This document shows, piece after piece, positions 10,167 to 10,738 of a stretch of 17,319 nucleotides of DNA. A program made the translations under genes and the position numbers. Below the pieces are notes generated by a model that saw only the letters and a list, made by a program, of their open reading frames with translations, was not told the DNA's origin and made no database searches. The stretch's first letter is position 1. Every line of letters begins with the position of its first letter. This DNA is from a virus: UHGV virus genome UHGV-1706157. One strand, written 5' to 3'.

Positions 10167-10234
10167 AGAGCATTCTTGGTGGACCTGTAGATTGGGATAT
10201 GAACCCGTTACAGGAGAATGCTCTTACCTGTTAC
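10167..10234 (-). repeat. structured hairpin element C (outer 10-bp stem enclosing a T-arm-like hairpin and an NCCA-like tail)
   Basis: Perfect inverted repeat AGAGCATTCT (10167-10176) / AGAATGCTCT (10225-10234). The enclosed minus-strand sequence CCTGTAACGGGTTCATATCCCAATCTACAGGTCCACCA has a 6-bp stem, a GGG-TTCATAT-CCC hairpin and ends in CCACCA. Confidence 0.35.
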
Positions 10235-10430
10235 GTGCTCCGTTTCGTGGAGCTAACGGCGGGTGATCGGGCCGCACCAGGCTGGACTTATTTCAGCGTT
10301 ATGCTCATGCCAGAGAATCAAACTGTGATGGTCGGTGCTGAACTCCGACACAGGGTTGTAGCAAGCCCCGCAAAGCGCGCACTACTGTAGTTGCGGCACA
10401 TCAGCCTGTGCATTCACCACAATGTTGAGA

Positions 10431-10508
10431 ACACTGGTTGTCACGCTGCAACGCAACATTTATTCGTAGATTGGGATATGACCCCGTTACGCCAGTGTTC
10501 TCAACGTT
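10431..10508 (-). repeat. structured hairpin element B (17-bp outer stem enclosing a copy of the 25-bp T-arm-like repeat)
   Basis: Inverted repeat AATGTTGAGAACACTGG (10431-10447) / CCAGTGTTCTCAACGTT (10492-10508), 16 of 17 paired. It encloses GTAGATTGGGATATGACCCCGTTAC (10466-10490), which matches 10197-10221 at 24/25. Confidence 0.35.
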
Positions 10509-10650
10509 GTAGTGCCGGTTACGGTTCCGGCCAGGCCTCTTCCTCAACGGGGTGTTCTCCATACGGACTACCGTTTATTGGTCGTTCCTGCGGTTTATGT
10601 TGTGAAGCCAGATGCTTATCTTCTGGTTGCTTCAAAGAGCTGCACTTCAT

Positions 10651-10738
10651 CACAACGGTAAGGGTACTTCGTAGGGATTCGAACCCTCTGCCAAGCTCGG
10701 CGATCTCCGACGTCGCAAAATACCCTTACCTGTTGTGC
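10651..10738 (-). ncRNA. tRNA-like element A (canonical T-arm GGGTTCGAATCCC inside a ~15-bp outer stem); possible decayed tRNA or processing structure
   Basis: Minus strand, immediately 3' of tRNA-Thr: CACAACAGGTAAGGGTA ... CAGAGGGTTCGAATCCCTACGAAGTACCCTTACCGTTGTG. The T-loop is textbook, but no canonical acceptor, D or anticodon arm could be folded by hand. Confidence 0.3.

Follow-up and report, generated by a model that had tools for sequence, protein, structure and literature searches.

Structured RNA units downstream of tRNA-Thr in the ban operon leader of a P1-like phage

What occupies the 732 nt that separate tRNA-Thr from the next gene in the ban operon of P1-like phages, where the transcribed strand offers no obvious gene? 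The question is raised by the virus genome UHGV-1706157 (17,319 nt; this whole stretch is called the window below), in which this leader is found at 10007-10738 on the minus strand, between tRNA-Thr and a 78-aa membrane open reading frame (ORF). Over 9700-11300 the window is 100% identical to MH422554 and other isolates of Punavirus P1, and its identity to the P1 reference is ~99% from 10040 onward. A preliminary description, restricted to 10167-10738, had reported at least three T-arm-like hairpins (A, B, C) and had proposed tRNA pseudogenes, processing signals or a new tRNA-like RNA family. The leader holds an array of RNA folds, co-transcribed with tRNAs, that are conserved, specific to one strand and supported by covariation. 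It consists of three tandem copies of a non-coding bipartite unit: a hairpin of a type named here H1, and a module named M2.

Composition of the leader

The elements are given in the order of transcription.
11096-11178, minus strand: hairpin D, H1 type, upstream of tRNA-Asn; 5′ GGCACAACAGGUAAGGGCGCUG, 3′ CAGCGUCCUUUCCUGUUGCG; inverted repeat and direct repeats.
10651-10738, minus strand: hairpin A, H1 type; 88 nt, 23-bp stem (17+6 bp) with a bulged A.
10599-10656, minus strand: M2a, short M2 variant; closing helix GUUGUG..GAAG / CUUC-CACAAC, hairpin CCAGA-AGAUAAGCA-UCUGG.
10515-10598, minus strand: spacer S3; ends in the small hairpin C0, GCCGG-AACCGUAA-CCGGC (10514-10531), before hairpin C.
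10415-10514, minus strand: hairpin C, H1 type without bulge; 18-bp stem plus CAC/GUG base.
10323-10422, minus strand: M2b, canonical M2; closing stem UGUGGUG / CAUCACA, linker AAU, variable centre.
10234-10322, minus strand: spacer S2; ends in hairpin GCUCC-ACGAAAC-GGAGC, recurrent upstream of H1.
10157-10234, minus strand: hairpin B, H1 type; 14-bp stem, inner 6-bp stem, 25-nt core (10187-10211), 3′ bulge UCCACCA.
10029-10161, minus strand: M2c, STnc100/PasD-like module; closing stem UUGCGGUG / CACCGCAG, z = -2.95.

Hairpins A, B, C and D are united by the sequences at the base of their stems (5′ CAC-AAC-A-GGUAAG(R)G..., 3′ ...C(Y)CUUWCC-GUUG-YGRUGAAUGC), not by a T-like loop. Hairpin A has a minimum free energy of -42.7 kcal/mol (z = -5.8); z is -4.9 for B and -5.6 for C, and for each of the three none of 200 shuffles is equally stable. 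The value for D is -5.9; no M2 follows it. On the minus strand A, B and C fold 6-8 kcal/mol better than on the plus strand, and the stem of C covaries with those of other family members. In D6, SJ46 and one further plasmid (L012), the place equivalent to D has its head motif on the opposite strand, a possible sign of inversion there.

The tip of hairpin A mimics a tRNA elbow: it combines a D-arm-like hairpin (10700-10716, GCGA-CGUCGGAGA-UCGC) with a T-like arm (10671-10689), whose stem of 4-5 bp encloses GGGTTCGAATCCC (GGGUUCGAAUCCC), and has no anticodon arm. The T-arm, AGGG-UUCGAAU-CCCU, matches the tRNA consensus (5-bp stem, 7-nt loop UUCRANY); within the window this holds for A only. Just 28 nt separate the acceptor-like segment from the T-like arm. 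No free 3′ NCCA acceptor end is formed: the stem runs 16 bp further and the 3′ strand reads CGAAGUA-CCCU. ARAGORN predicts no tRNA at A, and the Rfam tRNA model has no match in 10167-10738 even at E<=10. The T-arm cores of A, tRNA-Thr and tRNA-Asn are found at 10675, 10753 and 10831, that is, in steps of exactly 78 and 78 nt. A-type copies with compensatory stem changes are found in Enterobacter phage BUCT554 and in IMG/VR contigs.

The tip of C carries, besides a second small hairpin, the 25-nt core common to B and C (10187-10211 and 10466-10490; 24/25 identical). The corresponding loops, UUCAUAU and GUCAUAU, are borne by 3-bp stems; they are without the equivalent of A58 of the T-loop and are off consensus. 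The 3′ arm of the B stem is the boxA-like UGCUCUUUCC.

Much of the preliminary description of these hairpins stands. The hairpins are real (A, B and C are far more stable than shuffles, z -4.9 to -5.8), but the family has four members in the window, D included, rather than three. Their outer stems measure 14-23 bp rather than 10-17 bp. Element A was rightly placed at 10651-10738, with a textbook T-loop and no cloverleaf, ARAGORN and the Rfam tRNA model both being silent there. The near-identity of the B and C cores is confirmed, the first copy being moved to 10187-10211 from 10197-10221. Element C does not end in CCACCA: the transcribed strand has this string once, at 10177-10182, in the internal 3′ bulge of B. 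Folding no better than in shuffled controls had been envisaged; for A-D, z is -4.9 to -5.9. Hairpin D, the shared stem-base sequences, the M2 modules between the hairpins and the annotation of upl and plp (see below) had been overlooked.

M2b has the complete canonical arrangement. Its D-like hairpin, GCACA-GGCUGA-UGUGC, is at 10396-10411; its T-like hairpin, GUCGG-AGUUCAGCA-CCGAC, is at 10331-10349 and abuts the closing strand; the loop segments GCUGA and UCAGC are complementary. The M2a segment recurs in Sashavirus, P22-like and Klebsiella phage-plasmid genomes. The 3′ end of M2c resembles an intrinsic terminator, with CCGGG-AGGCA-CCCGG ahead of a U6 run. The canonical P1 sequence has CCUUAUUUCCC in place of this U-run; termination ahead of the downstream genes may differ between P1 variants.

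Spacer S3 is common to Citrobacter phage phiNP and its fold energy is unexceptional (z = +0.6); C0-type hairpins precede H1 in Sasha and other loci. A segment homologous to S2 adjoins tRNA-Arg and tRNA-Thr in Klebsiella lambdoid phages. The context 'AACGGAGC' is found upstream of many H1 copies.

Covariation and fold of the two families

IMG/VR was scanned with two patterns, each matching at least 120 contigs. The H1 set comprises 139 unique hairpins, drawn from the matches listed and from other loci, and 81 non-redundant classes of apical insert; among the matches listed, the source contigs are mostly 30-55 kb. H1 has a stem of 14-23 bp with conserved base sequences and a hypervariable tip of 30-55 nt. 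In the alignment used for covariation the 5′ arm is unconstrained by the search pattern. In this alignment 79% of stem cells are paired, versus 36-51% in slid registers; double-sided changes are found at 18 of 21 pairs, and one U-U mismatch is conserved. The covariation score is 0.319, versus 0.176 in shuffles (0/500 as high); the conservation with compensatory change that had been put forward as a check on the hairpins is present in the H1 stem. In stems, G-U pairs number 192, A-C pairs 106.

Among the matches listed, no upstream tRNA is found in the locus for 64 of 80 unique H1 copies. All nearby tRNAs are on the same strand as the unit; relative to downstream genes, 67 units are on the same strand and 15 on the opposite one. 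Canonical T-arm hairpins (stem of at least 4 bp, UUCRANY loop) are found in 9 of the 81 tip classes; dinucleotide shuffles give a mean of 0.07 and none of 500 reaches 9 (~130-fold enrichment). Most H1 tips are not tRNA-like. The T-arm-like elements first described are therefore statistically sound for the H1 family, but they belong to a minority of its members.

In M2, the elements that follow H1 are UGYGRUG-AAU, the hairpin GCRCA-GGCUGA-UGYGC, a variable region (median 69 nt, range 11-161), a terminal hairpin (5-bp stem, 9-nt loop AGWUCAGCA) and CAYCRCA; the module measures about 60-130 nt. The complement of the 5′ heptamer comes directly after the terminal hairpin in 124 of the 125 units that have this hairpin, and the gap between hairpin and closing strand is 0 nt in 115 of 116. 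The two loops pair GCUGA:UCAGC and can zip by 5-6 Watson-Crick pairs; the variants GUCGA:UCGAC and UGCUG:CAGCA stay complementary. This loop-loop helix was tested on alignment A2, for which it was not used in selecting sequences: 95.8% of cells are paired, slid registers giving 25-52%, and double-sided changes are found at two positions. M2 appears to have the topology of a tRNA: 7-bp closing stem, linker, D-like hairpin, variable centre and abutting T-like hairpin.

The 22-mer GUGGUGAAUGCRCAGGCUGAUG of M2 is identical in 59 bacterial species. Its hosts include Enterobacterales, Aeromonas, Marinobacterium and Betaproteobacteria (e.g. Massilia, Janthinobacterium), and its contexts are prophage-like, with head-tail adaptor, RecT, RdgC or repressor genes nearby. 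Such extreme conservation of the core suggests a specific binding partner. Three loci, from a Geobacteraceae metagenome-assembled genome (MAG; L252), an Acidobacteriota MAG (L256) and Martelella (L251), have 44-49% G+C and an enterobacterial-type H1; mis-binning of enterobacterial phage contigs, or contamination by them, may account for these loci, which calls for caution about the taxonomic range of the 22-mer. G+C is host-like (58-68%) at the Massilia, Janthinobacterium and Xenophilus loci. In two Janthinobacterium loci (L266, L267) and in L256, ARAGORN reports tRNA-like genes with 8-nt anticodon loops (aact, cact, ccat); these 4-base-anticodon genes lie 110-165 nt downstream of the M2 anchor, that is, right after M2.

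The idea that the base of H1 and the closing stem of M2 form a conserved structural switch, GUUGUG being able to pair with either CACAAC, was rejected after a three-way covariation check: only 2-5 nt are shared, and the extension is without covariation.

Genomic setting, relatives and likeness to known RNAs

The minus-strand order of the ban operon is: dmt, C1-controlled promoter, dicF-like region, tRNA-Asn, tRNA-Thr, leader (10007-10738), 78-aa membrane ORF, SPFH-domain gene, tRNA-Met/Ile(CAU), ban. The tRNAs next to the leader are the following.
10817-10892, minus strand: tRNA-Asn (GUU); ARAGORN, Rfam tRNA 74.5 bits.
10739-10814, minus strand: tRNA-Thr (UGU), CCA encoded; ARAGORN, Rfam tRNA 72.9 bits; followed by 2 nt (GC), then hairpin A.
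ARAGORN reports Met, Thr and Asn tRNAs only in the window. The element at 8859-8934 (minus strand) is a tRNA-Met(CAU) according to ARAGORN and Rfam, and a tRNA-Ile2 (lysidine type, ileX-like) according to the P1 record. The dicF-like region annotated in P1 upstream of the tRNAs corresponds to about 11347-11448 (minus strand). At 8962-10006 (minus strand), the SPFH/Band-7 gene and the 78-aa membrane ORF replace tciA-tciB-tciC of reference P1; the swap starts at 10040, which is the end of the STnc100-like module.

The leader is shared piecewise with other phages. The segment 10217-10311 recurs in Klebsiella lambdoid phages, 10490-10596 in Citrobacter phiNP, and 10593-10668 in Sashavirus, P22-like phages and Klebsiella phage-plasmids; element A has a match in Enterobacter phage BUCT554, which is without tRNAs. 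Among sister P1-like phages, differences come as whole modules. SJ46 is without 10212-10465, lost through recombination between the two 25-bp cores; RCS47 has an additional hairpin flanked by a 23-bp duplication. A true tRNA-Ser(UGA) is found in the leader of P7, D6, an E. albertii plasmid and others, in a cassette flanked by tail repeats; Ro157c2YLVW and CMS-2020a have a tRNA-Tyr between Asn and Thr. In P7, every tRNA 3′ end (CCA) is followed by GC and then by an H1-type hairpin; in P7, D6 and E. albertii plasmids, the hairpins come after intact tRNAs, not instead of them.

Similar units are found at other genomic positions, and those of P1 are homologous in sequence to late-leader units of lambda and many other temperate phages. 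In lambda, H1 comes directly after the tR' terminator (about 44,787-44,862) and is followed by a closing-stem module (to about 44,941), both in the untranslated late leader before gene S. As in the P1 leader, CAC-AACAGGUAAGAGCAUUG...CAGUGCUCUUUCCGUUGUG (H1) precedes a closing-stem module, GUUGUGCUG...CAGCACAAC; the P1 units differ in being part of an early, C1-controlled operon and in forming three tandem copies. The canonical H1+M2 unit of CUS-3 separates Q from the holin gene and is flanked by the annotated boundary sequences bsq4 and bsq3. In the P22-like phage Kapi1, the slot of the CUS-3 unit is filled by tRNA-Asn and tRNA-Thr, the same pair as in P1. Sasha has a canonical unit inside its structural operon, and SPN9CC an M2-type module (M2a segment) directly upstream of gene N. 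A Massilia prophage has, at the position of H1, a real tRNA-Gly with an acceptor stem lengthened by ACA/UGU, and a tRNA-Pro follows M2. The late-leader slot of temperate phages also holds real tRNA genes and prophage small RNAs (sRNAs). In Qin of E. coli K-12 (L298:13383-13500), dicF is followed at once by GUGGUGAAUGCGGCUGAGCGCACGCGG, the start of the STnc100-like module of P1/P7. Because of this arrangement, the ban-operon leader of P1 appears to be assembled from noncoding parts that also make up the lambdoid Q-S and dicB regions, and a common ancestry of the ban and dicB operon leaders is suggested. The K-12 cryptic prophages DLP12 and Qin have no canonical units; only the STnc100-type start after dicF was found.

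No Rfam family is found over 10167-10738 or at 15 other loci (gathering thresholds), nor over the loci of lambda, CUS-3, Kapi1 and Sasha (E<=1); the search by ARAGORN and Rfam that had been proposed for 10167-10738 yields neither a tRNA nor a family there. The conserved strings, searched as text in the literature, gave no match, and this search turned up no functional description of the lambda sequences.

The closest known RNAs are the prophage sRNAs STnc100 and PasD of Salmonella and pathogenic E. coli (PMC8550237; bioRxiv 10.64898/2026.05.13.724894). M2c matches STnc100 (RF02076) at 10040-10160 with 37.8 bits (E = 5.6e-6), below the gathering score of 47. Model positions 31-147 align, and both RNAs have 5′ YGGUGAAU, a closing stem, the hairpin CCGGG-AGGCA-CCCGG and a terminator; M2b has only the 5′ motif and the closing stem in common with STnc100. 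The STnc100 model finds nothing in 10167-10738 and matches neither H1 nor canonical M2 in any locus tested. In E. coli E2348/69, PasD1 and PasD2 start with GCAUGGUGAAU after their own promoter and follow a DUF3927 gene (P1 TciB family); this start shares the GGUGAAU closing-stem motif with M2c. In enteropathogenic E. coli, PasD is reported to be Hfq-dependent, validated by Northern blot and covered by RIL-seq data, and to have its seed in the variable centre (PMC8550237). PasD was rejected as a relative of the hairpins: its kinship is with the STnc100-type module. In E2348/69, neither the PasA nor the PasC region has H1 or M2 motifs.

Like a tRNA, M2 has a 7-bp closing stem, a short linker, a stem of 4-5 bp with a GG-containing loop of 6-8 nt, a variable centre, a 5-bp terminal hairpin abutting the 3′ strand and a loop-loop contact. 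The likeness of H1 to tRNA is limited to tips with canonical T-arm hairpins (element A and eight other tip classes). Set against tRNA and tRNA-like structures (the tRNA-like domain of transfer-messenger RNA, YrlA, viral tRNA-like structures, mascRNA), M2 and A have no anticodon arm and no free CCA end; in M2, the T-like loop has 9 nt and 5-6 Watson-Crick pairs replace the G18/G19-psi55/C56 contacts. The only YrlA match in the window (RF02553, 25.6 bits versus 69) covers the true tRNAs at 10755-10872. In YrlA itself, it is the anticodon position, and not the acceptor position, from which the long stem departs.

The leaders and spacers of rRNA operons recall the units: a boxA-like UGCUCUUU is followed by a helix that closes round an RNA cargo, with duplexes of RNase III size and embedded tRNAs. 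The two share no sequence homology, however, and not every family member has the boxA-like string: against the boxA consensus GCUCUUUA, UGCUCUUUCC is present, base-paired, in B and most family members and absent from A and C.

Other candidates were rejected. phi80 M3 RNA is an oop homologue, and the phi80 late leader is without H1 or M2. The analogy with integron attC sites, suggested by AAC...GTT cores, a bulged base and a variable centre, is not favoured: the cores fit RYYYAAC / GTTRRRY only partly, and the evidence from strand and orientation favours RNA. An origin of the tips from attP sites or tRNA fragments is contradicted by the many genome positions, the lack of a link to an integrase and the non-integrating life of P1.

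Readings of the units

With moderate confidence, the units are interpreted as an undescribed family of structured RNAs that are co-transcribed with tRNAs and have a cassette role at the RNA level; their probable role is that of processing or stability modules, or of sRNA precursors. Each unit would be a self-folding cassette punctuating the polycistronic transcript. The H1 duplexes and tRNA-like M2 folds would be cut or protected by host RNases (RNase III on H1 duplexes, RNase P or E at tRNA-like junctions), which would free neighbouring tRNAs and insulate downstream mRNA. Stable small RNAs would be left over, and the variable tips and centres would carry cassette-specific activities. Cleavage and punctuation are proposed on the precedent of RNase P: PMC5499578 and PMC11143913 describe cleavage by the E. 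coli enzyme of the phage hairpin RNAs C4 (P1/P7), CI (P4) and M3 (phi80), and of intercistronic mRNA sites. Of the proposals made in the preliminary description, that of an undescribed tRNA-like RNA family comes closest to these results, although the tRNA-like topology is mainly that of M2 and not of the hairpins; that of processing signals for the adjacent tRNAs is possible but too narrow, the units being mostly without tRNAs.

Several observations weigh against this interpretation. M2a and M2b alone are energetically unexceptional (z about -0.7), and the canonical kissing loops are missing from M2a and M2c. M2 helices 1, 2 and 4 were tested on sets selected for pairing; the unbiased evidence is that of the kissing helix and of H1. 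The M2 core, with 93% mean column identity and a 22-mer unchanged from Escherichia to Janthinobacterium, is more conserved than structure requires, and a pure processing role leaves the hypervariable tips unaccounted for. A plus-strand open frame (10061-10768, 236 codons, single stop) is unexplained. Every functional step for the leader is inferred.

Is the array a remnant of a longer tRNA cluster, with A, B and C as functionless pseudogenes? In favour of this, exactly one tRNA length (78 nt) separates the T-arm of A from the T-arm of tRNA-Thr, A combines D-like and T-like arms with an acceptor-like segment of 7 bp, H1 tips are enriched in T-arm-like hairpins, relatives have tRNA-Ser or tRNA-Tyr in the leader region, and the hairpin slot of the Massilia prophage is itself a tRNA-Gly. 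The defining stem sequences, however, are not tRNA-derived and flank about 80 unrelated tip classes; 64 of the 80 copies listed have no nearby tRNA; the tRNA model gives A no score even at E<=10; and the loops of B and C are off the T-loop consensus. The stems are kept by compensatory changes, and an A-type copy with covarying stems is found in an unrelated, tRNA-less Enterobacter phage, which argues for selection and not decay. The decayed array suggested earlier, already at odds with a family that is defined by its stem, is hence very unlikely: the P1 units are not decayed tRNAs, though some tips, including that of A, mimic the tRNA elbow. That the units are trans-acting sRNAs of the PasD/STnc100 kind, their folds being a scaffold or chaperone site and the variable tip or centre a seed, is a better candidate, yet still an unlikely one. 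It agrees with the sub-threshold match of M2c to STnc100 and its terminator-like end, with the GGUGAAU start, Hfq dependence and central seed of PasD (PMC8550237), with the terminator that follows many lambdoid units, and with hypervariability as expected from diversifying target specificity. It fits less well with a terminator on only the last of the three units of the window, with H1 tips largely buried in structure, and with a canonical M2 fold that is unlike STnc100 and undetected by its Rfam model; no targets were found, no target prediction having been run. This reading is partly compatible with that of RNA-level cassettes.

Selection could also act on DNA, the units being recombination linkers (short homologies or cassette-exchange sites) and the hairpins incidental. 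The concept is established for lambdoid phages (bsq3 and bsq4 are annotated in CP000711; PMC3029335), and the units resemble boundary sequences in being conserved non-coding stretches at module junctions of mosaic phages. The switch of similarity expected of such sequences is observed: the SJ46 deletion, the RCS47 insertion and the tRNA-Ser cassette break in conserved motifs, at which the module differences between sister phages start and stop, and the leader is a mosaic shared piecewise with unrelated phages. Homology, however, needs no secondary structure, yet the H1 stems covary and H1/M2 differ from boundary sequences in this covariation-supported RNA structure; the G-U pairs speak for one strand, and the units are oriented in the direction of transcription; and the CUS-3 unit is between boundary sequences, not in them, the end of bsq4 being close before H1 and the start of bsq3 close behind M2. 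As a sole explanation linkers are improbable; they are compatible with a role as RNA. A nut- or rrn-like antitermination site is a far weaker candidate, to which hardly any weight is given. In it, the boxA-like UGCUCUUU, a GU-rich GUUGUGGUG and a small hairpin would recruit Nus factors and carry polymerase through terminators or help long-range helices to form, as in rRNA operons. GCUCUU(U) is indeed found in the 3′ arm of most H1 stems; units are found just after terminators (tR' in lambda) and inside long operons, and an M2-type module directly upstream of gene N in SPN9CC; a stem closing round a cargo recalls rRNA processing stems. The boxA-like string is nevertheless base-paired in H1 and absent from A, C and many covarying stems, and no N-like protein is known for P1. 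One IMG/VR contig (L149) has a perfect rrn-type boxA (UGCUCUUUAACAA) in the H1 apical insert, a copy that would suit antitermination. The hairpins could, lastly, be coincidental to protein-coding genes on the plus strand: the P1 reference (NC_005856) annotates upl and plp there, with predicted sigma-70 promoters, the frame of 236 codons with one stop is unusually long, several relatives retain long frames too, and the SJ46 deletion does not shift the frame. Substitutions among relatives are nonetheless even over codon positions (30/29/34 in plp, 12/16/17 in upl), with a synonymous share of ~30% versus 24% expected at random. ORF ends and lengths shift with every module rearrangement; plp has a TTG start and overlaps tRNA-Thr; no Pfam match was found, no large protein-database search having been run; the NCBI annotation pipeline PGAP places no gene there in hundreds of P1-like plasmids; and the same modules are a non-coding leader in lambda. 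Coding is accordingly highly improbable, and the P1 annotation would be corrected: upl and plp probably do not represent genes. The distance between the two 25-bp cores, 279 nt, is in frame, and the SJ46 deletion leaves the plus-strand frame open.

A broader form of the RNA-level reading would make H1/M2 a pan-proteobacterial phage RNA cassette system. The M2 module would be tRNA-derived and recognised by host tRNA machinery such as RNase P, and the constant H1 stem would display hypervariable inserts, tRNA-elbow mimics included, as decoys or guides that counter host tRNA-targeting defences or competing phages. This is a speculative and rather improbable extension; it would explain the slots shared with phage tRNA genes and, if true, would mean that the lambda late leader encodes a functional structured RNA that has so far been overlooked.

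If the units are functional, well-studied phages, including lambda and P1, carry an undescribed conserved structured RNA. The 22-nt identity across prophages of Enterobacterales, Aeromonas and Betaproteobacteria would point to a universal partner (tRNA-processing enzyme, RNA polymerase or ribosome). The family would connect phage tRNA genes, prophage sRNAs of pathogenic E. coli (PasD, STnc100) and the site of Shiga toxin genes, a moron hot-spot that lies between Q and the lysis genes; it offers a testable model for the separation of tRNAs from mRNAs in polycistronic phage transcripts.

Intergenic regions with units collect several kinds of small RNA genes. In viral contigs, a Sib antitoxin RNA (98.6 bits; L024:1709-1862) and an int-alpA RNA (43.7 bits; L031:264-330) are each found within a few hundred nt of an H1/M2 unit.

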